A DNA stretch of 64,000 bases from contig JAFXEB010000002.1 of the NCBI GenBank assembly GCA_017521025.1, positions 20,232 through 84,231 of the forward strand. The letters run 5' to 3'. Below are positions 11,007-55,630 of the stretch, piece by piece. How positions within the stretch are numbered: the first letter of the stretch is position 1; each line of letters begins with the position of its first letter. The position numbers and the translations under genes are program-made. Under the pieces are notes generated by a model. The model was not told where the DNA came from. It searched no databases and saw nothing but the letters and a program-made list of their open reading frames with translations. Source of the DNA: Clostridia bacterium. GTDB lineage: Bacteria; Bacillota; Clostridia; Oscillospirales; CAG-382.

Positions 11007-13571
11007 TTATCTTGCCAACGCCAGCTTTATAAGGATACAGTCGGCAGAATCGGTGGTGTTGTTGCCGTTCATATCTGCGGCGATGAAGTATGCGCCCGTA
11101 AAGCTCAGCGCTTTCTTGATAGAAGTAGTCAGCGCAAGATAATCGAGAGAGGAGATGTCTGCGTCACCGTTGATGTCACCCTGAAGAACGGCGATACAGC
11201 TCTCGTCCCCACAGCTTACAGTGTAGCCTGTGCCTACACTGTTGCCGTCCGCTACAGCGGTGCCGCTGTTGTCGGTTATGGTGACCTCGTATTTAAACAG
11301 CGTTTTAAGAGCGGTGCCCGTGGTGCCAACCGCAAAGCCGCTGAAATATTCGTTAAGGCTGTAGCTGCCGCTTGCCGCTGCGGCGTCGGTCAGCTCAAGC
11401 TTTGCCGCCGAGACCACAGTGAACGGGGCGCTCAGTACGGTATGAGTCTTGGGAGAGGAGCCGTTTATGGTCTGCATCTGCACCGTGTAGGTATAGCTGC
11501 CTATGGGCAGTGTTGAAATATTGATATCAGCGTTTGCAGCAGACAGGTCATAGCTTGTAGTGTATGGGCTTGAGGTATGAGTGGCGACCGCAGTGCCTGC
11601 CGAGTTCAGCACCGAAACGCTGACATTGTATAAACCTGTGTCGGTATTGAGGGTGCCGCCCAGCGTAAACGCCTCACCCACCGTGTGTTCGGTAGGATAT
11701 TTGCCGTTATCCACCTTCGCCCATGCGGCGTAGAAGGTGACAATATCCCTGTCAGTGGAGGAGGAGGCAGAAATAGAGCAGCCGTCTGTATAGGTCTTAA
11801 GGAAATAGCCGGTGGTGTCTGTACCGGGAGCCAGCCACTTGTCAGCGAGGGTAGAGGTATTCTTGTAGCACCAGGTGTTATCAGAGCGCCTGAAGGCTGT
11901 CCAGCCAACGAAGGTGTAGCCCTCACGGGTGAAGGCGTTGGAGGTAATGGCGGTGGATGTGCCGTATACTATCTTCTGCTGTGCCATGGTGCCCGTGCCG
12001 CCGTTGGCATCGTACTGGATGTAGTAGGATTTTGTGCCTGTGGAGTTGGGGGTCCACTGAGCATAGCAGGTTACGGTGTCGCCGTCTACCGAGGTAAGGG
12101 CGGATACAGAGCGCTTATCCTCGTAAAGGGCGAGCACTGCGGTAGCAGGCTGAGAGCCCTTGGTGTACCAAGTGGGATTGCCGCTCTCAGTGAAATAAAG
12201 CCACTTGCCGTCCGACTTGCGGGTGAGATACCAGCCTGCAAAGGTATAGCCGCTATAGGTGAAATAGTTGGGACGCAGGTTGGTGGATACGCCCTTTATA
12301 TGAATGGTACTGCTCATCTTATAGTTGCCCGAGCTGGAGTTGGTGCCGCTGTCGGTGCCGCCGTTTGCGTTGTACTTTACGGTATACACAACGGCACTGT
12401 CATCAACCATAGGAGTGAAATCGCCGGTGCCGCTCTTATAGCTCATGGAATATACGCCCTCAAAGCTTGCCACGGGAGAAGCGTTGGCGTTGATGTACAT
12501 CTTAAGGTCGCCTGTGGTGCCCTGACCCGTGCGGAAGCCCACAGACTCTATCTCCAGATCATTGCAGGAGGAGCTGGTGGCAGAGGCGGTCAGATAGAAG
12601 TTGGTCTTTGTGGGGTGAACAAGCGTGGTCTTGTTAGTGGAGAAATCCATCAATGCATCAGTGAGCACCTTGCTTACGTTATAGGTGAGTATTACGTTGG
12701 TGGTAATGGGGCTGGCGGGCTTGAACATGGGCACGTAGATGGTCTGCTCCAGAGAGTTGTAGTAAAAGCCCTGATTGACCCAAGTCTCCATATTGGCGTA
12801 GGTACCTGCAGAGGAGTTGCTCTTTGCAAATATAGCGTTCCTCTTGTCGATGGTGAAGATCTTGTAGCAGGTCACCTTGGTAGGGTTGGAGGCGGTGCCG
12901 CCGGTGGCAGTATCCGCTATCTTGCAGTAATAAAAGGTCTCGCCGTTCTTGAGTAGCAGGTAGAAATAGCCGCCCGAGTGCTTGTACTGACGCACGCTGG
13001 AGACGGTCATAGAGGTACCGCTTGTATTAACGGTATCAAAATATCCGGTGAAATACAGGTTTGTGCCCGATATCTTCATCCTCGACAAGGAGTTCCCCTT
13101 AATGCTCGTGGCAACCAGCATATAATTTACGTCATTTGCAGTTACTACCTGAAGGTCGTTTGCGTGACCGCAGGTGTCACAGCCGCTGGTAGAGGTAGCC
13201 GAGGTACTCGAATAGTAGTTCATATAGGAGACCGAGCCCGAGGAAATAGTAGTACGTGCTATGGAAACGTAGGTGTCACTGCTGTTGCGCTTGGCGGTGT
13301 AGATATAGGTGGTGCCTACGTTCATGCCCTGCATAGAGGTGCAGGAGGTACCGCCCACGGTCTTGTTTGCGTGGATGGAAAGAAGGCTTGCCTCGCCCAT
13401 AGTGTGGGTAACGTAGCCATTGTAGGAGTAGGCAGAGGGACTTACACCGCTATCCCCGATAACAGCCTTTACCGTCGCACCGAGATCTGCCTCCACGGCG
13501 GTAACGGCGAGGGCGGGGGACAGCATACACAGACAAAGAAGAAGTGATATCATGCTGAGTAGCTTTTTCAT
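11007..13571 (-). CDS. Secreted protein: probable beta-propeller domain, two InlB-B/Listeria-Bacteroides-type repeats, C-terminal type I dockerin
   Basis: Start MKKLLSMISLLL at 13571 after SD aaaggtg, with a signal peptide. Repeats Y(N/D)ANGGT...GYTF.GW. Dockerin GDINGDADISSLDY...ADMNGNNTTDSADC. Confidence 0.8.
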   Translation of the reverse strand: MKKLLSMISLLLCLCMLSPALAVTAVEADLGATVKAVIGDSGVSPSAYSYNGYVTHTMGEASLLSIHANKTVGGTSCTSMQGMNVGTTYIYTAKRNSSDTYVSIARTTISSGSVSYMNYYSSTSATSTSGCDTCGHANDLQVVTANDVNYMLVATSIKGNSLSRMKISGTNLYFTGYFDTVNTSGTSMTVSSVRQYKHSGGYFYLLLKNGETFYYCKIADTATGGTASNPTKVTCYKIFTIDKRNAIFAKSNSSAGTYANMETWVNQGFYYNSLEQTIYVPMFKPASPITTNVILTYNVSKVLTDALMDFSTNKTTLVHPTKTNFYLTASATSSSCNDLEIESVGFRTGQGTTGDLKMYINANASPVASFEGVYSMSYKSGTGDFTPMVDDSAVVYTVKYNANGGTDSGTNSSSGNYKMSSTIHIKGVSTNLRPNYFTYSGYTFAGWYLTRKSDGKWLYFTESGNPTWYTKGSQPATAVLALYEDKRSVSALTSVDGDTVTCYAQWTPNSTGTKSYYIQYDANGGTGTMAQQKIVYGTSTAITSNAFTREGYTFVGWTAFRRSDNTWCYKNTSTLADKWLAPGTDTTGYFLKTYTDGCSISASSSTDRDIVTFYAAWAKVDNGKYPTEHTVGEAFTLGGTLNTDTGLYNVSVSVLNSAGTAVATHTSSPYTTSYDLSAANADINISTLPIGSYTYTVQMQTINGSSPKTHTVLSAPFTVVSAAKLELTDAAAASGSYSLNEYFSGFAVGTTGTALKTLFKYEVTITDNSGTAVADGNSVGTGYTVSCGDESCIAVLQGDINGDADISSLDYLALTTSIKKALSFTGAYFIAADMNGNNTTDSADCILIKLALAR

Positions 13572-13629
13572 AATATACCGCACCTTTCTTGTATAAATAC
13601 ACATAATCATTGCCTATATTATATAATAA

Positions 13630-14610: not shown

Positions 14611-17091
14611 TCAGTCCTCAAACTCGTCCTTCGTCAACGTAAGCAGCTCCCTTATCGCCTTTACCGTATGGTAGCTCTCGGGTGAGCTGTTGCCAAGCCT
14701 GAATATTTTTTCGTGCAGGTCAGGCTCCTCCTTGCAGGCGGTGTTATAGTAGTGGTTTTTCAGCTCAAAGGTGATGTTTGCCTTGACCAATAATGCGTAT
14801 ATGCGCTCGTAAACGTCGCTGTTGTCATGAACAAGTCTGTCACCGCTGATAATGACCTCTATGTCCTCGCTCACAGGCGCAGTCAGCTCTACCGTCAGTG
14901 TGTTTTGCCCGTGGTTGTAGTGGCTGCTTGCCTCAGCACTCTTGCCTCCTACCGTTACAGCCGCACCCACGCATCTGTGAAAGCCTCTGAATGAAAGCGT
15001 GTATCGGCGCTCCTTGGGCAGCAGTGAGAGGTCACCCCTTGCTCCGCTCAGCACAAAACGTGCGCTGTCGCCCCACTCAAGGCGCATATCGGTAAGGGCA
15101 AAGGCGCCTTCTTTGTAGTCCTGACCCTCGCCTCCGTCCTCGTATAAGGTGAAGGCACCGTCGGCGCAAGGGAATACCAATATCTCAAGGTCCTTGCCGC
15201 AGGCAGGCACGTTGTCCCTCTCCCTGTGTATACAAAGGGGTACTATCGCCCCCGCCTTGGCTAATACGGGGTAGCTGTGTATGTCACGGAAAAGCTCCGT
15301 CCGTCTGCTTTGCTTGCTGTGATAGTGTAGTCCCGTCTCAAGGTCAAACAAATCGCCTGCAGGCAGCCATGCCTCCGCCCTGCCAAGTCCGTCGGCGGCA
15401 CCGTTTGGCTCGGTAATTGGGCATACCATAAGCTCACTGCCAAACATAAATTGATTTTTCACCTCGTAGGCGGCGGAGCACTTGGGATAGGAGTAATACA
15501 TAGGCTCCACAAGAGGGGCAAGCTCCTTGTGACAGCGGTAATTCATAGTGTATATATATGGGAACAGCCTGTGGCGCAGTCTCAGCCATTTGCGTATGGC
15601 TTCGCCGGCTTCACCCCCGTAGTGCCACGCCTCCTTCAGCTGAAAACGGTTGCTGGTGCTGTGCAGGCGGTTGATAGGGGAGAATACCCCAAGCTGTATC
15701 CAACGGGTCATAAGACAGTCGTCACGGTAGCCGTGCATGTGACCGCCTATATCGTGGCTCCACCAACAGTAGCCGATATTGGATGCCGTGGCGGTAAAGT
15801 AAGGCTGAAACTCAAGGGCGTCCCAGGAGACCCTCGTATCCCCTGAAAAGCCTACGGGATAGCGGTGGCTGCCTGCCCCCGCAAAGCGGGAGAAGAACAT
15901 AGGTCTTTTGCCGTTACGTGATATGTCAAGTATATGCAGGTGGTTCAGCATCCACAGTGGGTCAAGCCTCTCACGGGGGTCGGCAAGCACGCCGCCCACG
16001 TTGCGCTCGTGTATCCACCAATAGTCTGTGCCCTGTTGCCAGTCCATCCACCAAAAGTCCACACCGTCCTCCTCATAGGGGTGGTGCAGTATATCAAAAT
16101 AGTCAGCCATAGCCTTGGGTGACAGCACGTTAAGGGGTATGCGCCTGCCGCTTTTGGGGTCGATGCCTGCGGCGACAGCCGCCCTTTCGTACATTGCCTC
16201 GTGCCGTCTCACACCTTGAGCAGGGTGCAGGTTAAGGGCGGTCTTTAGCCCCCTTGCCTTAAGCTCTGCAAGAAAAGCCTTGTAGTCGGGAAACAGCTCC
16301 TCGTTCCAGGTATAGCCCGTCCAGCCGCTTTCAAAGCCCTCCTCGGTCTCCCTCAGCTCCTCGGGGATGTTTACTATGTGCCAGTCCATATCTATAACGC
16401 CCACGGAAAAGGGAACGTCCTCCTCCTTGAAACGGTCCATGAGCGCAGTATATTCCTCTGCGGTATACTTGTGGTATCTGCTCCACCAGTTGCCAAGGGC
16501 GTAGGCAGGCAGTAGAGGCGGTGCGCCCGTTATGCGGAAATAGTCACTTACCGCCGCCCTGTAGTCATAGCCGTAGCCGAAAAAGTAAAGGTCAAGGCTG
16601 CCCTCACTGCGGGTCTCTATCCAGCCGTCCTCACCCAAAACCATAGTATCCGTATCGTCCAGCACGGAAAAACCAAAGCGTGAGCATACGCCTCTGCCAA
16701 GGGGCAGTGCTCCGTCGGTAACGTCAAGGGTGCGTGCCGTGCCGCCAAGGTCCTCAAAATCCTCACCGTAGTACCATGTGCTCCCCGGCTCGTTCACAAG
16801 CCGTACGCTGAGACTGTCACGGCTGAAGGGCTCGCCCTCCTTGTAGCGCAGTACAAGCTCTGCGGTGCAAAGAGTGAGAACGCCATCCTCCCTTTTCGCA
16901 TCGTGGTCCACTGCGCCAAGGTCTCTGTAAAAAACGGACTGGCTCGCCCTGTCCTCGGCACTGCCGTCGCCGAAATGCTCAAGCCTTATAAGCCTTGGGG
17001 TGATAAGGGTAAAGCGGTAACCCTTGCCCTCTACGGTATTGCCCGGGTGGGCGTTGGGAGCTACCTTCCATTTAAAGCGGTCGTATGCCAT
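14611..17091 (-). CDS. Glycoside hydrolase family 31 (alpha-glucosidase/alpha-xylosidase-like)
   Basis: GNWWSRY, VIDMDWH, FWWMDWQQG (nucleophile), FSGDT (acid/base), SHDIGG, RLHS. Confidence 0.92.
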   Translation of the reverse strand: MAYDRFKWKVAPNAHPGNTVEGKGYRFTLITPRLIRLEHFGDGSAEDRASQSVFYRDLGAVDHDAKREDGVLTLCTAELVLRYKEGEPFSRDSLSVRLVNEPGSTWYYGEDFEDLGGTARTLDVTDGALPLGRGVCSRFGFSVLDDTDTMVLGEDGWIETRSEGSLDLYFFGYGYDYRAAVSDYFRITGAPPLLPAYALGNWWSRYHKYTAEEYTALMDRFKEEDVPFSVGVIDMDWHIVNIPEELRETEEGFESGWTGYTWNEELFPDYKAFLAELKARGLKTALNLHPAQGVRRHEAMYERAAVAAGIDPKSGRRIPLNVLSPKAMADYFDILHHPYEEDGVDFWWMDWQQGTDYWWIHERNVGGVLADPRERLDPLWMLNHLHILDISRNGKRPMFFSRFAGAGSHRYPVGFSGDTRVSWDALEFQPYFTATASNIGYCWWSHDIGGHMHGYRDDCLMTRWIQLGVFSPINRLHSTSNRFQLKEAWHYGGEAGEAIRKWLRLRHRLFPYIYTMNYRCHKELAPLVEPMYYSYPKCSAAYEVKNQFMFGSELMVCPITEPNGAADGLGRAEAWLPAGDLFDLETGLHYHSKQSRRTELFRDIHSYPVLAKAGAIVPLCIHRERDNVPACGKDLEILVFPCADGAFTLYEDGGEGQDYKEGAFALTDMRLEWGDSARFVLSGARGDLSLLPKERRYTLSFRGFHRCVGAAVTVGGKSAEASSHYNHGQNTLTVELTAPVSEDIEVIISGDRLVHDNSDVYERIYALLVKANITFELKNHYYNTACKEEPDLHEKIFRLGNSSPESYHTVKAIRELLTLTKDEFED

Positions 17092-17267
17092 ATCCGTCTC
17101 CTCCGTTTGCCTTGTTTTTACCTTCTGTATCCGACTGTAATACGATTATAAAATATACCTCGGCATAAATCAAGGGAAAAACGTTTTTTTGGCTGTCCGA
17201 AAAGCCCTTGGATTTTCGGTATATTCACTAAAAACTGCAAAAATATGCTAAAATGCTAAATTTGCTA

Positions 17268-17296
17268 TTGTAAAATAAATAAAATAGGTATATAAT
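17268..17296 (+). promoter_or_regulatory. sigmaA promoter of the lic cluster
   Basis: TTGTAA-17 bp-TATAAT. Confidence 0.65.
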
Positions 17297-17396
17297 GTAA
17301 TTTATTAAATAACGAAAATATTTTTCCTGAGAGTATTTTTTTGTTGGTGCGCCATATATCTCGGGTGCGGTTTTATAAATGCAAAGGATGAGGCTT

Positions 17397-18266
17397 ATGT
17401 ACAAGGTAGATAATGCGGTAATAATGGCGGCAGGCGCCTCTTCACGCTTTGCCCCTCTCTCCTACGAGCTGCCCAAGGCGCTTATCACCGTAAAGGGTGA
17501 GGTGCTTATCGAGCGGCAGATAGCTCAGCTCAAGGCGGCGGGGATAGAGGATATTTACGTGGTGGTTGGCTATAAGGGCGATATGTTCTCGTACCTTGAG
17601 GAAAAGCTTGGGGTGCATATCGTCGAAAACCCCGACTATCTCACAAGAAACAACAATGCCAGCATCTATGCGGTGCGCCATATTCTGAAAAACACATATA
17701 TCTGCTCAGCAGACAACTATTTTTCCGAAAACCCCTTTGAGTCTCAGGTGGACGGCAGCTACTACGCCGCCGTTTATGCCGAGGGCGACACCAAGGAGTG
17801 GTGTATGGATTGCGATGAGGACGGGGTGATAAGCAGTGTGCGCATCGGCGGCAGAGACGCCTGGTATATGCTCGGTCACACCTTCTGGGATGAGGAGTTC
17901 AGCAAGGGCTTTCTCCGTATACTGGAGGCAGAGTATGACCGCCCCGAAACGGCGGACAAGCTGTGGGAGAGCATTTATATGGAGCATCTTGACAGCCTTA
18001 AGATGAAGATGCGCAGGTATGAGGACGGCGTTATTTTTGAGTTTGACACTCTGGATGAGCTTAGGGAGTTTGACGAGAGCTACCGTGAGGATACCCGTTC
18101 TGCCATTCTCAAGACTATAGCGGCAGAGCTTTCCTGTAAAGAGAGGGATATTACAGACCTTAAGGCATACAGGGGTGACAGTAACGATGCGGCAGGCTTT
18201 ACCTTTACCGCCTGCGGCAAGGGGTACCGTTACTCCTACAGCGACAGTAAGATAAAGGAGAACTGA
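17397..18266 (+). CDS. licC: CTP:phosphocholine cytidylyltransferase (LicC-like NTP transferase)
   Basis: NAVIMAAGASSRFAPLS...PKAL, RNN..SI, ICSADNY, EFDTLDELR; next to a choline kinase. Confidence 0.85.
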   Translation: MYKVDNAVIMAAGASSRFAPLSYELPKALITVKGEVLIERQIAQLKAAGIEDIYVVVGYKGDMFSYLEEKLGVHIVENPDYLTRNNNASIYAVRHILKNTYICSADNYFSENPFESQVDGSYYAAVYAEGDTKEWCMDCDEDGVISSVRIGGRDAWYMLGHTFWDEEFSKGFLRILEAEYDRPETADKLWESIYMEHLDSLKMKMRRYEDGVIFEFDTLDELREFDESYREDTRSAILKTIAAELSCKERDITDLKAYRGDSNDAAGFTFTACGKGYRYSYSDSKIKEN

Positions 18267-18269
18267 TTT

Positions 18270-19169
18270 ATGGCAAGAGAGATAATTAAGGAAGATATAC
18301 CTAAGATAAAAGCGTTGCTTGAGAAGGCACTTGGCGTTTCGGACTATGAGAGCCTTGCCCGTATGGGTGGACTCACCAACCACACCTACAGGGTGAGCCT
18401 TGCCGACGGCAGTGAGTATGCTTTGCGCCTCCCCGGTGAGGGCACTGAGGAGATGATCGTCCGTGGTGACGAGAAAAAGAGCACGGTGCTCGCCTGCGAC
18501 CTTGGCATAGATGCTGAGCTTTTGTATTTCGGCGATGACGGCTCCAAGGTGACAGCCTACATAAAGAACGCCGAGACCATGTCTGCCGACACCATAAAGG
18601 ACCCTCTTCGCATAAAGCAGGTGGCAGAAATTTATAAAAAGCTTCATTCCTGCGGTGTCGACACGGGCGTGCCCTTCGAGGTCTTCGATATGGCGGCAGG
18701 CTATAAGAAGATAATAGAGGACAAGAGCGTGCCTATGTTTGAAGATTACGACGGTATCGAGGCGGCTGTTATGGAGATAAAGGCGGAGACAGATGCCGCA
18801 GTATCACCCAAAAAGGTTCCCTGCCACAACGACCCTCTCTGTGAGAACTGGGTGGTTGGCGATGGGCGTATGTACCTTATAGATTGGGAGTACGCCGGTA
18901 TGAACGACGGTATGTGGGATCTGGCTGACATTTCTATAGAGGCGTGCTTTGACGGGGAGTGTGACAGGGCGCTTCTCACCGCATATCTGGGCAAGGAGCC
19001 TGATAAGGACGAGATGAAGCATTTCCTTGCCAGCAAGATATACGTGGATTATCTCTGGACCCTTTGGGCAAAGGCGAGGGTTCCCTATGACGGTCAGCCT
19101 ATGGAGGATTGGGCTGTGGAGCGTTATAACAGGCTTAAGGGCTTTATTGAAGAATACAGAAGCCTTTAG
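18270..19169 (+). CDS. licA: Choline/ethanolamine kinase (LicA-like)
   Basis: GGLTN, LRLPG, Brenner motif CHNDPLCEN, LIDWEYAG. Confidence 0.9.
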   Translation: MAREIIKEDIPKIKALLEKALGVSDYESLARMGGLTNHTYRVSLADGSEYALRLPGEGTEEMIVRGDEKKSTVLACDLGIDAELLYFGDDGSKVTAYIKNAETMSADTIKDPLRIKQVAEIYKKLHSCGVDTGVPFEVFDMAAGYKKIIEDKSVPMFEDYDGIEAAVMEIKAETDAAVSPKKVPCHNDPLCENWVVGDGRMYLIDWEYAGMNDGMWDLADISIEACFDGECDRALLTAYLGKEPDKDEMKHFLASKIYVDYLWTLWAKARVPYDGQPMEDWAVERYNRLKGFIEEYRSL

Positions 19170-19211
19170 ATAATTACCAAATAAAACTTTACCGAAAATG
19201 GAGGATCTACT

Positions 19212-20156
19212 ATGTTTTCAGGCGTATTAGCAGGCATAACCTGGGCGGTGGAAACCGTAGTTCTGGGCATAGCTCTGGCTATGAGTCCCTTCTGCTCTAC
19301 CGAGCAGGCTATCTTTCTTGCACCCTTTGTAAGCACCTTTTTGCACGATTTTTGCTCCGCACTGTGGGCAACCATATATAACGCCGTAAAGGGCAATACC
19401 AAAAACGTTTGGCGTGCTCTCAAGACCAAAAGCGGTAAATGGGTCGTTGCGGCGGCAGTCATCGGCGGTCCCGTGGGTATGACGGGCTATGTGCTTGCAG
19501 TTAACTATATGGGCGCATCCATAGGCGCTGTGGCAAGCGCTATTTTCCCCGCTATCGGCTCTATTCTCGCATACATCTTCCTTAAAGAGCGGATGAAGTG
19601 GTATCAGTGGATATTCCTTGTATTCACTTTGCTGGGTGTTTACGGCCTTAGCTATTCTCCCGACCTTAATATCGAAAACTTCTGGCTCGGTCTTTTGGGT
19701 GCGGCTATGTGCGCCTTTGGCTGGGGCATCGAGGCTGTTGTCCTTGCAAAATGCCTTACCGACCCCGAGGTTACCGATGAGTACGCTCTGCAGATACGTC
19801 AGACCACCTCTGCCATCGTTTACGGCGCAATCATACTGCCCGTGCTCGGCGGCTGGGGCTTTACCGTTGACCTGTTCACCGCAGGTACAGGCTGGCTCCT
19901 CCCCACCATCGCTATAGCGGGTCTCTTTGCTACCGTGTCCTATCTCTTCTATTACAAGGCAATAGCAAAGATAGGCGCATCCAAGGCTATGGCGCTCAAC
20001 GTTACATACTGCGCTTGGGCTATCCTCTTTACGGTGCTCATTTTGGGCGACACCTCCGTGCTTACTCCCACTACTATTATCTGTGCTATCGTGGTTCTGG
20101 TTTGCGGTATCTTTGCGGCGGCAGACTTTAAGGAGATACTCGGTAAAAAGAAATAG
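19212..20156 (+). CDS. licB: DMT/EamA-family transporter, LicB-like choline permease
   Basis: About 10 TMs, GGPVGMTGY motif, position after licCA. Confidence 0.8.
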   Translation: MFSGVLAGITWAVETVVLGIALAMSPFCSTEQAIFLAPFVSTFLHDFCSALWATIYNAVKGNTKNVWRALKTKSGKWVVAAAVIGGPVGMTGYVLAVNYMGASIGAVASAIFPAIGSILAYIFLKERMKWYQWIFLVFTLLGVYGLSYSPDLNIENFWLGLLGAAMCAFGWGIEAVVLAKCLTDPEVTDEYALQIRQTTSAIVYGAIILPVLGGWGFTVDLFTAGTGWLLPTIAIAGLFATVSYLFYYKAIAKIGASKAMALNVTYCAWAILFTVLILGDTSVLTPTTIICAIVVLVCGIFAAADFKEILGKKK

Positions 20157-20167
20157 TCGCCTTGCTA

Positions 20168-20196
20168 TTGCGTAAAGGCTGATATTGTGCTATGAT
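20168..20196 (+). promoter_or_regulatory. Possible internal sigmaA promoter before the CPBP/TagF/YidC-fusion genes
   Basis: TTGCGT-17 bp-TATGAT with extended TG; hairpin aggcggcg...cgccgcct downstream. Confidence 0.45.
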
Positions 20197-20272
20197 TGAT
20201 AGGCGGCGTCCTTACATTAAGGTGCGCCGCCTTACGGATTTTAAAATAAAGGCTGAGAAACGGTATCCTTAT

Positions 20273-20932
20273 ATGATATTCTTTTTCATTATACTGTACG
20301 GTCTGCTGCTCGGTGCAGGCGACTTGCTTGCCCATCTGTCACCTATAGTCCCTCTGCTCACCGCCCTTGGGGTGCTGGTGTATTGCCGCCTTATGCTTGC
20401 GTGGGTAAAGCGCAGCGGTCAGGGTGCAGAGATAGGGCTCGTCCTACCTGATATAAAGGGTGCGGGAGACTGCGCTTTGCTTTTGCCGTTGCTGCTCTTG
20501 CCCGTGCTTAACGTTTTCCTTTTCGGGCTTACGTTGCCCACCCTTTCCTCGGTGCTCCTTATGTTTGGCGTTTCCGTGGCAGAGGAGGTGTTTTTCCGTG
20601 GTTTTCTTCTCCGTTTTCTCGGCTCTCTTGGCAGATACGGTGCGCCCCTTATGGCATCGTTCTTTTTCGGACTTTTCCATTTCATAAACCTTGCGGGCGG
20701 TGCCGACCCCGTATATACCGTGCTGCAGGCGTTCTGTGCCTTCGGGACAGGGCTCGCCTTTTGCGGTGTCAGACGCAGGTTAAAGAGCCTTGTGCCCTCC
20801 ATCGCCGCTCATTTTCTGATAAACCTTACAGGCGCCGCTTCTTCGGTATCTGCGGCGGTATCCGGTTCCTTGCTTATCTGCGGCGGCATTATGGCGGTCT
20901 ACGGACTGTGGCTCTGCGGTGAAAAACAGTAA
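20273..20932 (+). CDS. CPBP (Abi/CAAX) family intramembrane metalloprotease
   Basis: EEVFFRG, FGLFH, AAHFLIN. Start moved to 20273 because ATG 20192 overlaps the -10 box. Confidence 0.85.
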   Translation: MIFFFIILYGLLLGAGDLLAHLSPIVPLLTALGVLVYCRLMLAWVKRSGQGAEIGLVLPDIKGAGDCALLLPLLLLPVLNVFLFGLTLPTLSSVLLMFGVSVAEEVFFRGFLLRFLGSLGRYGAPLMASFFFGLFHFINLAGGADPVYTVLQAFCAFGTGLAFCGVRRRLKSLVPSIAAHFLINLTGAASSVSAAVSGSLLICGGIMAVYGLWLCGEKQ

Positions 20933-20947
20933 AACAGGAGTGTTTTT

Positions 20948-22183
20948 ATGAAGCTTTATATCGACCCCGGTACGGGGAGTATGCTCTTTACCATTCTCAT
21001 AGGCGTTCTCGGCGCCGCCTTCTATTCTCTGCGTATGCTTTTCGTCAAGCTAAAGTTCAAGATAAGCGGCGGTAAGGCAAAGGCTATGGATACCACCATC
21101 CCCTTCGCCGTGTTCTCGGATGACAAGCGTTATTTCAAGATCTTTGAGCCCGTACTGCGTGAGCTTGGTCGCAGGGGTAAGGAGGTCGTGTATATGACCG
21201 CCTCCGAGGATGACCCCGCCTTCCGCTGTGATATCCCCGGCGTGAGGGCAGAGTTCATAGGTAAGGGCAACAAGGCGTTTTCAAAGCTGAATTTCCTTAA
21301 CGCTACCGTGCTGCTCTCCACCACCCCCGGTCTTGACGTTTATCAGTGGAAACGCTCCAAGGGCGTTAAGTATTACGTTCACATACCCCACGCCGCCAGC
21401 GAGATAGTGCTTTACAGGATGTTCGGCATCGACTATTACGATGCGGTGCTCCTCTCCGGCGATTATCAGGAGAAGGATATCAGAGACCTTGAGGTGATGC
21501 GCAAGCTTCCTGAAAAGGAGCTTTACAAGATAGGCATCCCCTATATGGATGAGATGGCGGCAAGGCTTGAGCGTGAGGGCACAGGGGCAGCGCACCCTCT
21601 TACCGTGCTTCTTGCTCCCTCCTGGGGCAGCAGTGCCATATTCAGCGTTTACGGCGGCAGGATACTTGATGTACTGCTAAAAACGGGCTACCACGTTATA
21701 GTCCGCCCCCATCCTCAGTCCTTCGCTTCCGAGACCGAGCTTATTGAGGGGCTTATGAAAAAATATCCCCCCTCCGAAAAGCTTGAGTGGAACAGAGATA
21801 CCGATAATTTTGACGTGCTTCGCCGCTCAGACATACTTATATCCGACTTTTCGGGCGTTATCTTTGATTTTGCCCTGATATATGACAAGCCTATAATCTA
21901 TACCGACCCCCGTTTTGACCTCGGTCCTTACGATGCGTGGTGGCTTGACAGACCCCTTTGGACTGCCTCCGCCCTGCCCAGATTGGGTATGCAGCTTACG
22001 GAGGAGAATATGGAGGGACTCGGCGAGCTTGTTGACCGCTGTCTCAGCGACCCACGCTACAGCGAGGGCAGGCGTCAGGTTAAGGATGAAACATGGGCAT
22101 ACTTCGGCGAGGGAGCCGCAAGAGCGGCTGATTACCTCATAAATAAGTATGACGAGCTTCAAAAGGTGAAAGAGGAAAAGTGA
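20948..22183 (+). CDS. CDP-glycerol glycerophosphotransferase (TagF/TagB) family protein with N-terminal TM
   Basis: HIPHA, LLAPSWG, RPHPQ, ILISDFSGVIFDF; N-terminal YIDPGTGS plus TM; SD aggag. Confidence 0.85.
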   Translation: MKLYIDPGTGSMLFTILIGVLGAAFYSLRMLFVKLKFKISGGKAKAMDTTIPFAVFSDDKRYFKIFEPVLRELGRRGKEVVYMTASEDDPAFRCDIPGVRAEFIGKGNKAFSKLNFLNATVLLSTTPGLDVYQWKRSKGVKYYVHIPHAASEIVLYRMFGIDYYDAVLLSGDYQEKDIRDLEVMRKLPEKELYKIGIPYMDEMAARLEREGTGAAHPLTVLLAPSWGSSAIFSVYGGRILDVLLKTGYHVIVRPHPQSFASETELIEGLMKKYPPSEKLEWNRDTDNFDVLRRSDILISDFSGVIFDFALIYDKPIIYTDPRFDLGPYDAWWLDRPLWTASALPRLGMQLTEENMEGLGELVDRCLSDPRYSEGRRQVKDETWAYFGEGAARAADYLINKYDELQKVKEEK

Positions 22184-22184
22184 T

Positions 22185-24995
22185 ATGTCGTTTTTTGAGA
22201 TCCTTGGTAACGTGCTCATAGGACCGTTAAAGCTGGTTTTTGAGCTTATATACGGTGCCGCATATAGGTTTGTTGACCATCCCGGCATCGCTATCATATT
22301 TTTAAGCCTTGTTATGAACATCCTTGTATTGCCTCTTTACAGGCGTGCTGACGCTATGCAGGAGGAGGCGAGGGATACCGAGGCGAGACTGCGCCCCGGT
22401 GTAGAGCATATCAAAAAGACCTTCTCCGGTGACGAGCGCATGATGATAATGCAGGCGTACTACCGTCAGGAGGGCTATAAGCCCACCAGTGGTCTTAAAG
22501 GCTCTGTGTCCCTGCTGCTTGAGATACCCTTCTTTATGGCGGCGTATCAGTTTTTGTCAAGCCTCAGTATATTGAACGGCGTGCCCTTCGGCCCTATCGC
22601 CGATCTGGGCAAGCCTGACGGCCTTTTGGTTATCGGCTCTCTCAGCATAAACCTTTTGCCCGTGCTGATGACCCTTATCAACTGCGTGTCCAGCTATCTG
22701 TATCTGAAGGGCTTTCCCCTTAAGACAAAGATACAGCTTTACGCTATGGCGTTGTTTTTCCTTGTGTTCCTTTATACGTCTCCCTCGGCGCTTGTATTTT
22801 ACTGGACGCTGAACAATCTGTTCTCCCTTGTAAAGACCATATTCTATAAGCTTAAAAACCCTATGGCGGTCATCCGTATAATTACCTCTGTGGCAGGTCT
22901 TGCGCTGATCGCCTACGGTGCGCTGTCGGATATAGGTATCAACAACAGCATAATTATTATGGCGATAGGTCTGGGACTTGAGATTCCTCTTCTCGGCCGT
23001 ATCCTCGACAAGAAAAACGAAGGCAAAGCGGAGGCAGACAGTGAAAAGCAGACCGAAAAGGCAAAGGCGGTAAAGGCATCTTCAAAGCCTGATAAAAAGC
23101 TGTTTGTGCTTGGCTCTCTTTTCCTGACCCTGCTTGTAGGCGTGCTTATACCCTCGGCGTATATCGCCGCATCTCCACAGGAGTTTGTGGATATGGGTTA
23201 TTACCACAACCCTCTCTGGTACGTGGTCAGCGCCCTCTGCCTTGCCGCAGGTACCTTTATGGTCTGGGTAAGGGTGTTCTATTGGCTGGCAAGCGATAGT
23301 GCAAAGCGTGTGTTTGAAAAGCTTGTCTGGGTGCTTTGCGGCGTTGCCTTCATAAACTATATGTTTTTCGGCACAGGTCTTGGCGTTATCTCCTCTACTC
23401 TGAAGTATGAGGAGGGTATGCACTTTTCCGTGTCCGAGCAGGTGCTCAACGCTGTTGCGGTGATAGCTCTTGCGGCAGTGATGCTTCTGGTCATCTCTAA
23501 GTGGAGGCGTGTTGTGTCCTCGGTGCTTGCCCTTGCCATAGTCGCCTCTGTAGGTATGTCTGTATGGAATGTAGTGGGCATCAAGAGCGACGTGGACGAG
23601 ATACACCTTGGCTCTGACTCCTCCTCGGGTGCGCCTTTATATACCCTCAGCGAGGACGGCAAAAACGTAGTGGTCATAATGCTCGACCGTGCTATGGGTG
23701 AGTACGTGCCCTTTATGTTTGCCGAAAAACCCGAGCTTGCCGATATGTTCGCAGGCTTTACCTATTACGATAACGTGGTTTCCTTCGGCGGCTTCACAAA
23801 TATGGGCGTACCTGCTCTCCTCGGCGGCTACGAGTATACGCCCGTTGAAATGAATAAGAGGGCAGAGGAGGCGTTGGTCTCCAAGCATAACGAGGCGCTT
23901 AAGGTCATGCCCACGCTCTTTGCCGACAGTGGCTATGACGTTACGGTTTGTGACCCCACCTACGCCAACTATAAGTGGATACCCGACCTTTCAATATTCG
24001 ATGACAACCCCGATATAAAGACCTATATCACCAAGGGCAAGTTCGGCGACCCCGAGCAGAAAAAGGCTGTTGTCTCCAACAACCGCCGCAACTTTTTCCT
24101 GTTCAGCCTTATGAAATCCCTGCCCCTGATGCTACAGCGCTCTATGTATAACGGCGGCAGGTATAACCAGTTGGTGTATGAAGACGGCGTTGTCAGCTAT
24201 GGCACTCAGGCTCTTGAGAGCACCTCCAAGGCGCAGGGGATGTCTGTCAGCTTTATGGACCCCTATAACGTGCTGGCGAGTATGTCCTATATAACCGATA
24301 CCACCAAGGGCAAGGGCAGCTTTATCTTCCTTTCCAACGATGCCTGCCACGAGCCGATGCTTTTGCAGACCCCCGATTACGTGCCTGCCGAGAAGGTGGA
24401 TAACACCGTGTACGAGGCAGAGCGTGGCGGCAGCGTGAAGCTTGGTGACAGAGAGCTGCTTGTGGATACCGACGTGCGTATGATACACTATCACGCTAAT
24501 ATGGCGTCCTTCCTTCAGCTTGGCAAGTGGTTCGATACTCTGCGTGAAAAGGGCGTTTACGATAATACAAGGATAATTCTCGTGTCTGACCACGGCAGAT
24601 ACCTGGGGCAGACCAAGGAGCTTGTTATGGATAACGGCTCTGACAAATACAAGAACGCATCTATGTATTTCCCCCTGCTTATGGTCAAGGATTTCGACAG
24701 CAAGACCTTTACCACCTCCCACGAGTTTATGACCAACGCAGACGTGCCTACCCTTGCTACCGCAGGGCTTATCGATTCCCCCGTGAACCCCTTTACGGGC
24801 AAGGCGATAAACAGCAGTGAAAAAACTGCCCACGAGCAGTTTATTTCCCTCTCGGGTCAGTGGGACGTTAAGATAAATAACGGCAACACCTTTATGGAGG
24901 GTAAATGGGCAAGCGTGAAGGACGATATCTGGGTAAAGGATAACTGGACCTTCTATAGCGGCAAGACCGTGCTTGACGAGCATAAGGCACCCTAA
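22185..24995 (+). CDS. Fusion of a YidC/Oxa1-like domain, extra TMs and a C-terminal LtaS/sulfatase-like (alkaline phosphatase superfamily) domain
   Basis: YidC-like GIAIIFLSLVMNILVLPL, LLEIPFF, PSALVFYWTLNNLFS. C-terminal NVVVIMLD, GFTN, CHEP, ILVSDHG, NADVPT. Confidence 0.82.
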   Translation: MSFFEILGNVLIGPLKLVFELIYGAAYRFVDHPGIAIIFLSLVMNILVLPLYRRADAMQEEARDTEARLRPGVEHIKKTFSGDERMMIMQAYYRQEGYKPTSGLKGSVSLLLEIPFFMAAYQFLSSLSILNGVPFGPIADLGKPDGLLVIGSLSINLLPVLMTLINCVSSYLYLKGFPLKTKIQLYAMALFFLVFLYTSPSALVFYWTLNNLFSLVKTIFYKLKNPMAVIRIITSVAGLALIAYGALSDIGINNSIIIMAIGLGLEIPLLGRILDKKNEGKAEADSEKQTEKAKAVKASSKPDKKLFVLGSLFLTLLVGVLIPSAYIAASPQEFVDMGYYHNPLWYVVSALCLAAGTFMVWVRVFYWLASDSAKRVFEKLVWVLCGVAFINYMFFGTGLGVISSTLKYEEGMHFSVSEQVLNAVAVIALAAVMLLVISKWRRVVSSVLALAIVASVGMSVWNVVGIKSDVDEIHLGSDSSSGAPLYTLSEDGKNVVVIMLDRAMGEYVPFMFAEKPELADMFAGFTYYDNVVSFGGFTNMGVPALLGGYEYTPVEMNKRAEEALVSKHNEALKVMPTLFADSGYDVTVCDPTYANYKWIPDLSIFDDNPDIKTYITKGKFGDPEQKKAVVSNNRRNFFLFSLMKSLPLMLQRSMYNGGRYNQLVYEDGVVSYGTQALESTSKAQGMSVSFMDPYNVLASMSYITDTTKGKGSFIFLSNDACHEPMLLQTPDYVPAEKVDNTVYEAERGGSVKLGDRELLVDTDVRMIHYHANMASFLQLGKWFDTLREKGVYDNTRIILVSDHGRYLGQTKELVMDNGSDKYKNASMYFPLLMVKDFDSKTFTTSHEFMTNADVPTLATAGLIDSPVNPFTGKAINSSEKTAHEQFISLSGQWDVKINNGNTFMEGKWASVKDDIWVKDNWTFYSGKTVLDEHKAP

Positions 24996-25017
24996 GACAA
25001 TACGAAATACAAAAAGG

Positions 25018-25047
25018 AGGGCAGAGAAGCGGTTTCTCTGCCCTTTA
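25018..25047. terminator. Terminator between convergent genes
   Basis: agggcagagaa-gcggt-ttctctgccct. Confidence 0.7.
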
Positions 25048-25058
25048 ACATTCTGTTT

Positions 25059-25547
25059 TTACAGCTCAATATAGTAGGGACAAATATCCTCGTATCTGCC
25101 GTCATCAAGCCTGAAGCCACGGGGTATCACGCCAAGAGGTACAAAGCCAAGCCGCTCATAAAGCCGCCTTGCCCTTTGGTTTGACGCTACCACCGCATTG
25201 AATTGCAGTATGGTAAAGCCGCAGTCCTTGCCCCTTTTCAGACAGTCACGCACAAGCCTCTCGCCTATTCCGCCGCCTCTGTGGGCAGAGGCTACGGCAT
25301 AGCTTGCGTTGCAGATGTGGCCGCAGCGCCCCACGTTGTTTGGGTGCAGGATATAAAGCCCCAGCACCTGACCGCTGTCGCCGTCGAGGGCAACACAGCT
25401 ACAGGTCTGCTCCTTGAAAAAGGCTCTGCCACTTTCTTTGTCAAGCGGCTCTGTTTGCGGAAAGGCAAGCCCCTCCCTCACTACCTCGTTCCATATCTCC
25501 ACCATGCTGTCAAGGTGCTTCTCCTCATAGGGTATGACCGATATCAT
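25059..25547 (-). CDS. GNAT family N-acetyltransferase
   Basis: Start MISVIPYEE overlaps the upstream stop (ATGA); NASYAV..HRGGGIG, FNAVVASN..A..LYERLGF. Confidence 0.88.
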   Translation of the reverse strand: MISVIPYEEKHLDSMVEIWNEVVREGLAFPQTEPLDKESGRAFFKEQTCSCVALDGDSGQVLGLYILHPNNVGRCGHICNASYAVASAHRGGGIGERLVRDCLKRGKDCGFTILQFNAVVASNQRARRLYERLGFVPLGVIPRGFRLDDGRYEDICPYYIEL

Positions 25548-38919: not shown

Positions 38920-39015
38920 GCAGTGATACAGTATTGATTTGAGGAAAAACCTATGCTATAATCAAGTAAAATAAAACAGCAAAATATGATCCATTTTGGG
39001 AAAGGAACGGCTTTT

Positions 39016-40572
39016 ATGAAAAAGATTCTTGTAATGCTCCTTGCTTTCACCCTTGTTCTGTCAACGGTGTGCTTTGTAAAAGGCACAGAGGTAAAGGCGG
39101 CTAATGTGGAGACATACATAGGCGACCTTAAGCTGACTAAGATCAATGGCATCTGGAGTGACCCCACCACTAATACTATGATACTGCTCACCCCCGGTCA
39201 AAGTCTTAACGCACTGTATTATGCAAGGCTCTGCGCCGTATATGACAGTGCGGCAGGCTGTTATGTGGTTACCGAAAAGATAGCCACCCATTGCTCAAGC
39301 TCAACCACCATTCCTACGGGGGGCATAGGGCTTGCCTTCAACTATGCGCCTATTTCGGGCAACAGCTATTCCAACGCCTTTGCCAAGGCAAACTGGCTTG
39401 TATGGGATAAGATACGTGTGGGCGATAAGCTTACCCTGAGCGGCGTTGACCTTACAAACAAGACCCTTTCCGTAAGCGGCACATGGGCGTCGGCAAGCTT
39501 TGTTTCCAACGCTCTCGTAAAGGTCACTACCGTCCGTGACGATGCTGCACCCAAGACCCCCTTTACGGGTAAAAAGATAGTATGTATGGGCGACAGCGTT
39601 ACCGTGGGCGGCGGCTGGACCGAGGCTATCAGCAATACCTTCAATACCGAGGTCATCAACAGCGGCTTCGGCGGCGATACCTCAACCAACTACTACAACT
39701 ACCGCTACCAGACCCACGTTGCGGCTCATAATCCCGATATTGTTTTCGTTGAGTTCGGCATAAACGATGCCCTCACCTACAAGGGCACCGCCGCAGGCAT
39801 CGAGACCTATAGAAACACCCTGCGCAATATCTATCAGAAGAATACCGCTATGGGCGCAACCACTATCTTTATGACCCCCAATAACATAAACATCTCTATG
39901 TATGACGGCTCCTCCTACAGCGCTTACGGCGGCTTGCAGGGCTATCTGGATGCCTTCCTTCAGGCTATGGAGGACGTAGCCAATGAGTACGGCTGTCACT
40001 TTATCAATATTTACGAGATGTGGCGCACCAACAACTATGCCCCTACATATCTTATCGACGGCACCCACCCCACCAGCTACGGCTATGCAAGGAATATCGA
40101 AAAGATACTGGCTTATCTTGAGGAGAATAAGTACGATATCTGCGGCGTGTCCGCCGACCCTACCGAGCTTACCGTTAAAAGCGGCAGCGGCATCTCTATT
40201 GAAGGCTCCCTGCTTACGGGCGTAGGTGAGAGCGTGAGCGTTGACAGCCTTAAGGCTCAGTTCAACGAGGATGCAGGCTATATCTCCGTAAGGAATGCCG
40301 GTGGCGCCGAGATAACAAGCGGTACCGTAGGCACTACCTTTACCGTAAACCTCGTGGTAGGCGGCTCTGTGATAAAGAGCTATAGCGTGGTAATAGCAGG
40401 TGACGTAACGGGTGACGGCGTAGTGTCCGGCGCAGACTATATACTTGTCAAAAGCGCTATCAGCGGCACCGTCAGCCTTAACACCCCCTGCGTGAAGGCG
40501 GCAGACTTTGACGGCTCCGGCGACGTTTCCAGCTCCGACTATATGTATATAAGGACGTTGCTCTCAAAATAA
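39016..40572 (+). CDS. Secreted SGNH/GDSL hydrolase with C-terminal dockerin
   Basis: Signal peptide; GDSVT, NSGFGGD, FGIND, DGTHP; dockerin GDVTGDGVVSGADY...ADFDGSGDVSSSDY; promoter TTGATT-17-TATAAT at 38934-38962. Confidence 0.88.
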   Translation: MKKILVMLLAFTLVLSTVCFVKGTEVKAANVETYIGDLKLTKINGIWSDPTTNTMILLTPGQSLNALYYARLCAVYDSAAGCYVVTEKIATHCSSSTTIPTGGIGLAFNYAPISGNSYSNAFAKANWLVWDKIRVGDKLTLSGVDLTNKTLSVSGTWASASFVSNALVKVTTVRDDAAPKTPFTGKKIVCMGDSVTVGGGWTEAISNTFNTEVINSGFGGDTSTNYYNYRYQTHVAAHNPDIVFVEFGINDALTYKGTAAGIETYRNTLRNIYQKNTAMGATTIFMTPNNINISMYDGSSYSAYGGLQGYLDAFLQAMEDVANEYGCHFINIYEMWRTNNYAPTYLIDGTHPTSYGYARNIEKILAYLEENKYDICGVSADPTELTVKSGSGISIEGSLLTGVGESVSVDSLKAQFNEDAGYISVRNAGGAEITSGTVGTTFTVNLVVGGSVIKSYSVVIAGDVTGDGVVSGADYILVKSAISGTVSLNTPCVKAADFDGSGDVSSSDYMYIRTLLSK

Positions 40573-41962: not shown

Positions 41963-42606
41963 TGTATTCCGCTTTTATAAAAAGATTTCTTGATTTTTGC
42001 ATTTCCCTTGTGGCTGTTGCAGTTCTGTCACCCGTGCTTCTGCTTTTGACGGTTGCAGGCGCAGTGGCTATGGGCGGAAACCCCTTTTTCGTGCAGAAAC
42101 GCCCGGGAAGGATACGGAAAAGCACGGGGGAGGAGAAAATATTCAGGCTGATAAAATTCCGCACAATGAATAACCGTCGGGATAAGAACGGTGAGCTTTT
42201 GCCCGATGCTGAGCGCCTTAACCGCTACGGGCGAATATTGCGCTCTACGTCTCTGGATGAGTTGCCCGAGCTTATCAATATATTAAAGGGCGATATGTCC
42301 ATAGTGGGGCCAAGACCGTTACTTGTTAAGTATCTGCCCTTGTACAGCAAGGAACAGCGCCGTCGGCACCGGGTGCGCCCCGGCCTTACGGGACTTGCAC
42401 AGATAAACGGGCGGAACGCTATTTCGTGGCAGCAGCGTTTTGCTTTGGATGTAAGATATGTTGACAGCGTAAGCTTTGCCACGGATATTAAAATAATCGT
42501 TGGAACTTTTTCTGCCGTGTTAAAGAGTAAGGGCATCAGCTCTGCTACCAACGTCACGATGGAGGAGTTCAGAGGCAACGAAACTGAAGAAAAGGTTTGT
42601 TTGTAG
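41962..42606 (+). CDS. Initiating phosphoglycosyl transferase (PglC/EpsL-like)
   Basis: KRFLD, KFRTM, SLDELPEL.N..KGDMS.VGPRP, RPGLTGLAQ. Confidence 0.92.
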   Translation: MYSAFIKRFLDFCISLVAVAVLSPVLLLLTVAGAVAMGGNPFFVQKRPGRIRKSTGEEKIFRLIKFRTMNNRRDKNGELLPDAERLNRYGRILRSTSLDELPELINILKGDMSIVGPRPLLVKYLPLYSKEQRRRHRVRPGLTGLAQINGRNAISWQQRFALDVRYVDSVSFATDIKIIVGTFSAVLKSKGISSATNVTMEEFRGNETEEKVCL

Positions 42607-55628: not shown

Positions 55629-55630
55629 CT

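Follow-up and report, generated by a model that had tools for sequence, protein, structure and literature searches.

Six co-directional genes in a 64,000-nucleotide stretch of contig JAFXEB010000002.1 from a Clostridia bacterium (assembly GCA_017521025.1; hereafter the window) were analysed. The upstream half of this locus is the classical lic pathway (licC, licA and licB), and the downstream half combines three known superfamilies in an arrangement for which no description was found. It includes a TagF-family enzyme and, next to it, a protein in which a YidC/Oxa1-like domain is joined to a domain of the alkaline-phosphatase (AP) superfamily. The TagF-like enzyme and this YidC-AP fusion behave as an obligate pair, and the pair is genetically linked to genes that supply cytidine diphosphate (CDP)-alcohols, mostly licCAB (48 of 79 related loci are lic-linked), as had been suggested from the letters alone. 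We lean towards reading the locus as a choline-to-surface pathway without LicD, in which the TagF-like enzyme would consume CDP-choline and work in complex with the fusion to decorate the cell envelope. Phosphocholine on bacterial surfaces affects how natural antibodies, C-reactive protein and host receptors recognise the cell, and the pair is a candidate for the missing transferase step in many gut Clostridia without LicD.

The open reading frame (ORF) list and Pfam searches placed all six ORFs on the plus strand, from 17379 to 24995, where an earlier, sequence-only reading of this DNA had put them:

17379..18266, plus strand: licC, cytidine triphosphate (CTP):phosphocholine cytidylyltransferase-like (NTP_transf_3, PF12804)
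18270..19169, plus strand: licA, choline kinase-like (Choline_kinase, PF01633)
19212..20156, plus strand: licB, choline importer-like DMT/EamA permease (PF00892, two stretches)
20192..20932, plus strand: CPBP/Rce1-like intramembrane protease (PF02517)
20948..22183, plus strand: TagF-family (Glyphos_transf) CDP-alcohol phosphotransferase-like enzyme (PF04464)
22185..24995, plus strand: 936-residue fusion, 60KD_IMP plus Sulfatase (Pfam)

The arrangement is far from a chance one, since it recurs in dozens of genomes.

The TagF-like enzyme, the fusion and their pairing

Related loci, 79 in number, were taken from the best 80 of 393 matches. They come mostly from Oscillospiraceae, Acutalibacteraceae, Faecousia and Fimenecus, with some Lachnospiraceae; nearly all are metagenome-assembled genomes (MAGs) of mostly undocumented completeness, and the loci are mutually related, so that the counts are not independent. 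In 68 loci the gene after the TagF-like one is a single-ORF fusion, and in five more two or three fused paralogs come next, which places the two genes side by side in at least 73 of the 79. Among the remaining loci four are cut by contig ends, one has the fusion split in two ORFs, and one shows no fusion in its remaining 831 bases. In two loci (L024 and L040) both genes have been duplicated together, and six others (L025, L032, L050, L060, L068 and L075) have one TagF-like gene with two or three fusions, which fits one donor with several acceptors. When 300 genomes of the class were scored, the eight that had the fusion (E≤1e-30) were exactly those that had a TagF-like ortholog (E≤1e-120); the two genes are mostly adjacent there, in either order and with up to four pairs per genome. 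By these counts they form a conserved pair.

Two more weak TagF-family matches in the class sample (25–26% identity) were judged to be other enzymes. Four genomes of one genus in that sample (g157; G268, G353, G379 and G405) carry two to four pairs each, in both gene orders. At the level of the order the pair is rare and patchy, being present in 4 of 151 genomes and in none of the seven from the window's own family.

A complex was predicted from fusion residues 1–480 and the TagF-like protein, with alignments of both. The score was 0.71 (median of three runs), against 0.00 for the best of three controls; of 80 solved complexes 58 score this high, as do 2 of 110 mismatched pairs, a calibration that is rough here since our own alignments were used. 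At least 33% of the contacts agreed between the three runs, and the partner had a predicted local distance difference test (pLDDT) value of at least 80. In the predicted interface, residues 75–95 of the fusion, which lie in the cytoplasmic hairpin of its YidC-like part, face residues 130–133, 157–162, 185–187 and 326–331 of the TagF-like enzyme, and most of these positions are invariant or lie in columns at least 90% conserved. We know of no solved YidC-TagF complex, and it therefore seems unlikely that the result was passed on from the memory of the model. The prediction supports a physical association of the two proteins, and the pair very probably acts as one complex.

The AlphaFold2 (AF2) model of the TagF-like enzyme (pLDDT 84.3, predicted template modelling score (pTM) 0.80) has a helix at residues 7–39 followed by two Rossmann-like halves, i.e. 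a glycosyltransferase B (GT-B) body. The proposed membrane anchor was thus recovered as a single N-terminal transmembrane (TM) helix, and the basic residues following it place the body in the cytoplasm. The protein scored 37.2 bits against PF04464, over the Glyphos_transf cut-off of 22.1, and its top Foldseek match was TagF (3L7I, 3.6e-13, template modelling score 0.57). A profile of 51 orthologs matched the TagF-like capsule polymerase Cps3D (0.0026) and TarL (0.021), with donor-domain motifs in common; the RPHP and SDFSG motifs align with those of both proteins. Three histidines, H145, H148 and H255 (in RPHP), are invariant across the 51 sequences. No residue-by-residue match to TagF was obtained, whose catalytic histidines we take to be H444 and H584. 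The N-terminal 15 residues, YIDPGTGSMLFT, are also invariant in the 51 sequences. Since choline has no free hydroxyl after transfer, the enzyme would carry out a single transfer and would not be a polymerase.

The fusion (AF2 model, pLDDT 85.9, pTM 0.77) has 12 TM helices when the model is combined with counts of Lys and Arg (K+R) in the loops, and is divided as follows:

22185..23009, plus strand: residues 1–275, YidC/Oxa1-like domain, TM1–TM7, cytoplasmic hairpin 56–99 (PF02096, TIGR03592, AF2)
23010..23093, plus strand: residues 276–303, Lys/Glu-rich cytoplasmic linker (8 K+R in 28 residues; pLDDT 52–66)
23094..23612, plus strand: residues 304–476, five TM helices as in LtaS/EptA/PbgA-type proteins (AF2)
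23640..24992, plus strand: residues 486–936, extracytoplasmic AP-superfamily domain (PF00884, 1.5e-11)

Pfam placed 60KD_IMP at residues 34–221 and the Sulfatase family at 493–855. The YidC-like part, modelled as five core helices, the hairpin and two extra helices, scored 87.8 bits against PF02096 (cut-off 35) and 84.6 against TIGR03592 (cut-off 84.3), and the K+R counts put the loop at 56–99 inside and the AP domain outside. The helices of the middle part lie at 304–329, 344–368, 371–394, 416–439 and 441–476. Full-length EptA, MCR-1 and PbgA were among the Foldseek matches, those of EptA type (5FGN, 2.6e-07; 9NWW, 4.8e-07) with low template modelling scores, and the alignment of PbgA by VIA-align begins at model residue 301. 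No NCBIfam model of LtaS or EptA matched the fusion, and there was no match to EptA at the sequence level.

In 73 aligned sequences D501, T538, H722, D802 and H803 of the AP domain are invariant. LtaS and GacH have a pattern of metal-binding acid, Thr, Asp and His (E255/T300/D475/H476), and D501/T538/D802/H803 fit it. The type I sulfatase motif, which we take to be Cys/Ser-x-Pro-x-Arg with formylglycine as nucleophile, does not occur at the nucleophile position; the segment there reads GGFTNMGVPALLGG, and the invariant T538 lies in GGFTNMGVPALL. Judged from these residues, the invariant Thr favours a phosphotransferase.

The fold of the outer domain gave VIA-align Z scores of 21.4 for a phosphonate monoester hydrolase, 20.6 for choline sulfatase, 20.2 for PbgA, 19.3 for LtaP, 18.6 for EptC and 18.4 for LtaS. 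LtaS and LtaP are therefore no closer to it than are sulfatases and phosphonate monoester hydrolases, a point that speaks against the favoured reading, and assignment to one AP branch by fold was rejected since all branches tie at Z 18–21. The LtaS/EptA-like label given to this domain by the sequence-only reading is apt for the architecture, five TM helices plus an outer AP domain, and, given the invariant Thr, probably for the chemistry; as the name of an AP branch, 'LtaS-like' is a candidate at most.

The same scores (Z 20–21.4 for phosphonate monoester hydrolases, sulfatases and choline sulfatase) would suit a fusion that is mainly a hydrolase, i.e. a sulfatase, a phosphodiesterase or an esterase trimming phosphocholine. 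Public records name the protein 'YidC/Oxa1 family membrane protein insertase' or 'hypothetical', and the insertase name would suit a specialised insertase. The YidC-like part would then merely insert or fold the outer domain, and the TagF-like neighbour would be a client or unrelated. This is very improbable: the nucleophile position holds an invariant Thr and not the sulfatase motif given above, five TM helices with an outer domain are the layout of lipid-head-group transferases, the genome has a separate housekeeping YidC, and the two genes are strictly coupled.

The housekeeping YidC of the same genome (480 residues, L080:1432-2874, contig C27) is 28% identical to the YidC-like part of the fusion over 92 residues; in it, about 170 inserted residues separate the two halves of the 60KD_IMP profile. 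N45 of the fusion, invariant in 73 sequences, aligns with the conserved groove arginine of YidC, presumably E. coli R366. A change in YidC function, of which this residue might have been a sign, was rejected, because the housekeeping YidC also departs from Arg at this position, where it carries Gln; the substitution is no peculiarity of the fusion.

The fusion family comprises at least 3,960 clusters at 90% identity. The C-terminal part (five TM helices and AP domain) used as a query gave 920 clusters at 50% identity (E≤1e-30); 25 of these were sampled, and 10 of the 11 proteins with 825 residues or more had a YidC domain, against 1 of the 14 shorter ones. A search of cluster records for cultured carriers gave MAG records only. 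As database leads, YidC-domain proteins of 870–950 residues with Sulfatase or Phosphodiest domains are reported for Pseudomonadota and Campylobacterota, and YidC-sulfatase fusions may thus not be confined to Bacillota; Spirochaetota is the phylum in which one of the TagF-like clusters is most frequent.

Supply of the CDP-alcohol and the place of LicD

The lic genes proved genuine, as had been read: for LicC, LicA and LicB, the pneumococcal counterparts are the best or the sole relatives of solved structure. LicC matched PF12804 at 1.9e-13, with PF00483 also over cut-off, and its best relative among all solved structures was pneumococcal LicC (1JYK, 2.3e-39, residues 12–236). LicA scored 66.7 bits against PF01633 (cut-off 29), with 3DXQ (1.8e-44) and the pneumococcal choline kinase 4R77 (3.9e-38) as solved relatives, and LicB, with two EamA stretches, had pneumococcal LicB (7B0K, 1.2e-32) as its sole solved relative at E≤0.01. 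It is well supported by these relationships that LicB would import choline, LicA phosphorylate it and LicC make CDP-choline in the cytoplasm.

Within 10 kb of the pair, separate licC and licA genes were found in 36 of the 79 loci, 34 of them with licB; all were co-directional, 22 upstream and 14 downstream of the pair. A fused LicC-LicA ORF, on either strand, was present in nine loci and mixed forms in three more, giving 48 lic-linked loci in total. Another four had only a distant LicC-like gene (30–35% identity). The proposed co-occurrence of lic genes, TagF-like gene and fusion applies to these 48 loci, and about a quarter to a third of the pairs lie away from lic.

In one locus with a LicC-LicA protein (L025:17063-18856) the protein has an N-terminal winged-helix HTH_24 domain, and its neighbour is a cytosine/purine-type permease, not LicB; LicC-LicA-type ORFs of about 590–620 residues also occur in L009, L036, G253, G268, G353 and G374. 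At L048:6861-9592 an MBOAT acyltransferase and an AlgX-like SGNH protein, by their families another envelope-polymer modification pair, lie directly upstream of the pair.

When the TagF-like proteins were placed in a tree with FastTree, one Faecousia-rich clade (18 rows, 17 without lic) took in most of the lic-less loci. Neighbours in this clade are a 432-residue transporter of the major facilitator superfamily, belonging to the organophosphate:phosphate antiporter family (TIGR00881, 4e-49), and a 246-residue nucleotidyltransferase with LicC as best solved relative (2e-08). Each was present in seven loci, both together in six and either alone in two. At L058:7840-9890 and in six or seven more loci of the clade, the LicC-like enzyme and the antiporter replace licCAB beside the pair. 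By its gene families this combination reads as a second supply route, which would import an already phosphorylated alcohol.

Choline kinase (PF01633) is otherwise rare in the order, where it was found in 11 of 151 genomes (3 of the 4 with the pair and 8 of the 147 others). In the class sample, choline kinase and LicC-like genes were present in all five pair-bearing genomes checked (G405 and G430 were left out), often a few kb from the pair. A further set of 50 genomes, derived from 50 of the 79 loci and picked for long flanks, had choline kinase over cut-off in 36.

The genome that contains the window (1.64 Mb, 36 contigs) is 85.69% complete. As had been stated for the window, LicD (PF04991) had no match there, nor in the rest of this genome; a Lactococcus control genome gave a match. 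Across genomes, LicD was detected in 45 of 151 of the order and 25 of the 50 derived from the loci. In this second set LicD is equally frequent with the kinase (18 of 36 genomes) and without it (7 of 14); it therefore does not track lic. Of the expected absence of licD from carriers, half was seen: 18 of the 36 lic-positive pair genomes are without it and the other 18 have it. Two nearly complete genomes, G253 (98%) and G379 (99%), have lic and the pair, and no LicD was found in them. LicD is dispensable in genomes with lic and the pair.

A search of the window's own genome gave no TagD-type glycerol-3-phosphate cytidylyltransferase, and the Glyphos_transf gene of the window is the only one there. 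One other Sulfatase-family protein was found, secreted and with an F5/8 type C domain. Choline-binding repeats (PF01473) gave no match in this genome, a result that is uninformative as the control was silent too.

A number of findings weigh against the favoured reading. The PF04464 match of the TagF-like enzyme covers profile positions 221–301 of 367 only. By VIA-align, uridine diphosphate N-acetylglucosamine (UDP-GlcNAc) 2-epimerases (Z 22.4, root-mean-square deviation 3.3, 314 aligned) score as high as TarL (20.8) and TagF (20.7); as generic GT-B proteins do equally well, membership in the TagF family rests on sequence. To our knowledge, no TagF-family enzyme has CDP-choline as donor or diacylglycerol as acceptor. 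There is no lic gene within 10 kb in 27 of the 79 loci, several of which have short flanks, and G268 has four pairs amid unrelated (housekeeping) genes, with its lic genes on another contig. Choline kinase over cut-off was absent from 14 of the 50 pair-bearing genomes and also from G127; 7 of the 14 have a TagD-like gene, 2 of them over cut-off. No residue of either protein separates lic-linked from lic-less orthologs at the 90% level, and at 80% conservation the changes are mild; therefore either the donor is the same and reaches the pair in a different way, or its identity is not set by lic. LicD is present in half of the 50 pair-bearing genomes, and given the completeness of the window's own genome it could be missing from that assembly. 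Finally, this genome has five CDP-alcohol phosphatidyltransferase genes (PF01066), none in the window, whose products could, by family, use CDP-choline.

Several of these points would suit a pair that does not handle choline. The TagF-like enzyme would then use another CDP-alcohol (glycerol, ribitol or other) for a teichoic-acid-like polymer, lic would merely cluster with surface-decoration genes, and CDP-choline would go to LicD or to a phosphatidylcholine-making enzyme. The kinase-negative genomes, the TagD-like genes in half of them, the lack of clade-specific residues and the five PF01066 genes are in line with this, as is the family name of the TagF-like proteins in public records, CDP-glycerol. 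We consider it improbable, since 48 of 79 loci have lic beside the pair, arranged in at least three ways, and choline kinase is otherwise rare in the order (8 of 147 genomes); the window's own genome is without TagD or a second TagF-family gene, and the lic-less clade has another importer and a LicC-like activating enzyme at the same place. The TagF-like enzyme probably uses the product of the adjacent cytidylyltransferase, here CDP-choline.

Proposed relay and relation to known systems

In the proposed pathway the TagF-like enzyme would use up CDP-choline at the inner membrane face, where two contacts would hold it: its N-terminal helix, and the YidC-like domain, on whose cytoplasmic hairpin it would dock. 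In the first step the enzyme would load phosphocholine onto a membrane lipid, either diacylglycerol, resulting in a phosphatidylcholine-like donor, or a glycolipid. The lipid head group would then cross the membrane beside or through the YidC-like domain, and in the third step the Thr of the outer domain would take the phosphocholine and hand it to a surface glycan or protein. The phosphocholine is probably lipid-borne, because the sole catalytic part outside is an AP-type transferase of a kind that draws head groups from lipids. The lipid relay of the sequence-only reading is plausible and fits the architecture, and passage through a lipid to the outer domain is put forward tentatively.

E. 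coli YidC is reported to scramble phospholipids in vitro, and the YidC-like part may for this reason pass the head group. That it is itself the flipping device is rather unlikely. Equally doubtful is the fullest form of the proposal, a self-contained machine for making, flipping and transfer, with a TagF-fold enzyme, the YidC-like groove as conduit and an AP-type transfer after which the lipid is returned. In its simplest form this machine would make phosphatidylcholine from diacylglycerol and CDP-choline by a fold never seen doing so, and varied supply cassettes (licCAB, LicC-LicA fusions, or an organophosphate importer with a LicC-like enzyme) would feed one core. If true, no domain of the insertase family would have been shown before to act within an enzyme as a conduit dedicated to lipid head groups, and abundant gut Clostridia would have a novel way of making an epitope that mimics the host. 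Should the YidC-like part carry head groups for the fused enzyme, the scramblase activity reported for insertases would gain a physiological use.

A credible rival, to which we give a low probability, is a one-step analogue of LicD. The TagF-like enzyme would put phosphocholine on a lipid-linked glycan inside the cell, and a Wzx-type flippase would export the glycan. The fusion would either act apart outside with an ordinary phospholipid donor, for example by transferring glycerol phosphate or phosphoethanolamine onto that polymer, in the manner of GacH or EptA, or would help to insert the complex or keep it in place. Lipid-linked glycans are the substrates of TagF-family primases and polymerases at the inner membrane face, and pairs without nearby lic genes are known. 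GacH, a protein with 11 predicted TM helices and an AP domain, is reported to decorate a wall polysaccharide from phosphatidylglycerol.

A Wzx-type surface polysaccharide locus, also in line with the one-step route, is found in the window at 40751-61617, on the downstream side of the lic locus at a distance of about 16 kb, and may supply the acceptor. It contains a DegT aminotransferase, a Bac_transf initiating transferase (41959-42606), six GT1/GT4 glycosyltransferases, epimerases, a Polysacc_synt flippase (55484-56911) and a 1545-residue NAGPA phosphodiester glycosidase with BspA-type leucine-rich repeats (44485-49122). The one-step route leaves unexplained that the two genes were never apart in the 300 sampled genomes, that the pair is duplicated as a unit, and that the YidC-like hairpin is the predicted docking site of the cytoplasmic enzyme.

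The first three steps are like those of the lic1/lic2 systems of Streptococcus pneumoniae and Haemophilus influenzae (LicB, LicA, LicC, LicD). Where the transferase is expected, the present locus has a TagF-family enzyme and the YidC-AP fusion, and no LicD was found; the LicD fold differs from that of TagF. With TagF/TarF/TarL, Cps3D and Bcs3 the locus enzyme has in common PF04464, TagF as top Foldseek match, the donor-domain motifs and a cytoplasmic body. It differs from these enzymes in its single N-terminal TM helix, its invariant start and its linkage to licC, and further in that no source of CDP-glycerol was found in the genome and that docking on a YidC-like hairpin is predicted.

Five TM helices with an outer AP domain and the acid/Thr/Asp/His set are common to the fusion and to LtaS, LtaP, EptA/MCR-1, PbgA (5-TM) and GacH (11-TM); the fusion adds an N-terminal YidC-like domain, and its outer fold is no nearer to LtaS and EptA than to sulfatases. 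It resembles YidC/Oxa1 insertases in PF02096/TIGR03592, the five core helices and the cytoplasmic hairpin, but is an extra paralog joined to an enzyme, with a hairpin predicted to bind the TagF-like enzyme and not the ribosome or a nascent chain.

A relevant report concerns Clostridium immunis, in which licABC leads to an exopolysaccharide bearing phosphocholine, licABC alone suffices in C. symbiosum, the locus and the exopolysaccharide are linked to host metabolism, and horizontal spread was proposed (bioRxiv 10.1101/2024.06.12.598703). In its main text, supplements aside, this preprint names no transferase and never mentions licD. In both cases the lic genes are those of gut Clostridia.

The type A flagellin glycan locus of Clostridioides difficile 630 also combines a LicC-like gene (CD0242) with a glycerophosphotransferase-like one (CD0244), whose role was left open by the authors, and places a non-glycerol phospho-alcohol onto a glycan (PMC4441256). 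It differs in its target, a flagellin GlcNAc, in the group transferred, phospho-N-methyl-threonine, and in having no YidC-AP fusion. In the full texts searched, subscription journals and supplements aside, no TagF-family CDP-choline transferase, LicD-independent route in Clostridia or YidC-AP fusion was described.

Borders of the locus and neighbouring genes

Two putative signals flank the six genes:

17268..17296, plus strand: promoter-like site TTGTAA-17-TATAAT (consensus scan, 10 of 12 matches)
25018..25044, no strand assigned: GC-rich hairpin with an 11-pair stem between the convergent fusion and GNAT genes

The promoter-like site lies upstream of licC in a 287-bp intergenic region that follows a divergent GH31 gene. 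The licC frame contains an ATG at 17397, the start used in the sequence-only reading, with a Shine-Dalgarno-like stretch, GGATGAGG, ahead of it, and by these signals 17397 is probably the true start. The scan assigned the hairpin to the minus strand, and the tail on the plus strand is merely moderately T-rich; from its sequence the hairpin is likely to be a two-way terminator. An internal promoter suggested at 20168-20196 was not among the 13 sites of the promoter scan, and its -10 element would overlap the start codon of the CPBP gene. An Rfam scan of 16800-25300 gave no riboswitch and no family, the sole match being sub-threshold and snoRNA-like. In a genome of the same genus (G007) the island was not found by synteny, both flanks lying at contig starts there.

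The CPBP protein scored 62 bits against PF02517 (cut-off 22.4) and contains EEVFFR, FGLFH and HFLIN, i.e. motifs of the EExxxR, FxxxH and HxxxN types that are presumably the three catalytic motifs of CPBP/Rce1-like proteases. Its family identity was thus upheld, and its place in the core system was not: it is an accessory, optional extra, because a homolog is present in 11 of the 79 related loci.

DNA of the locus is listed for animal gut metagenomes, and among the data sets listed for it none is of RNA. Elsewhere in the window, type I dockerin domains were found in two secreted proteins, at 11007-13610 on the minus strand and 38986-40572 on the plus strand, one with Listeria-Bacteroides repeats and the other with a GDSL lipase domain; by these domains they suggest a cellulosome-type organism.

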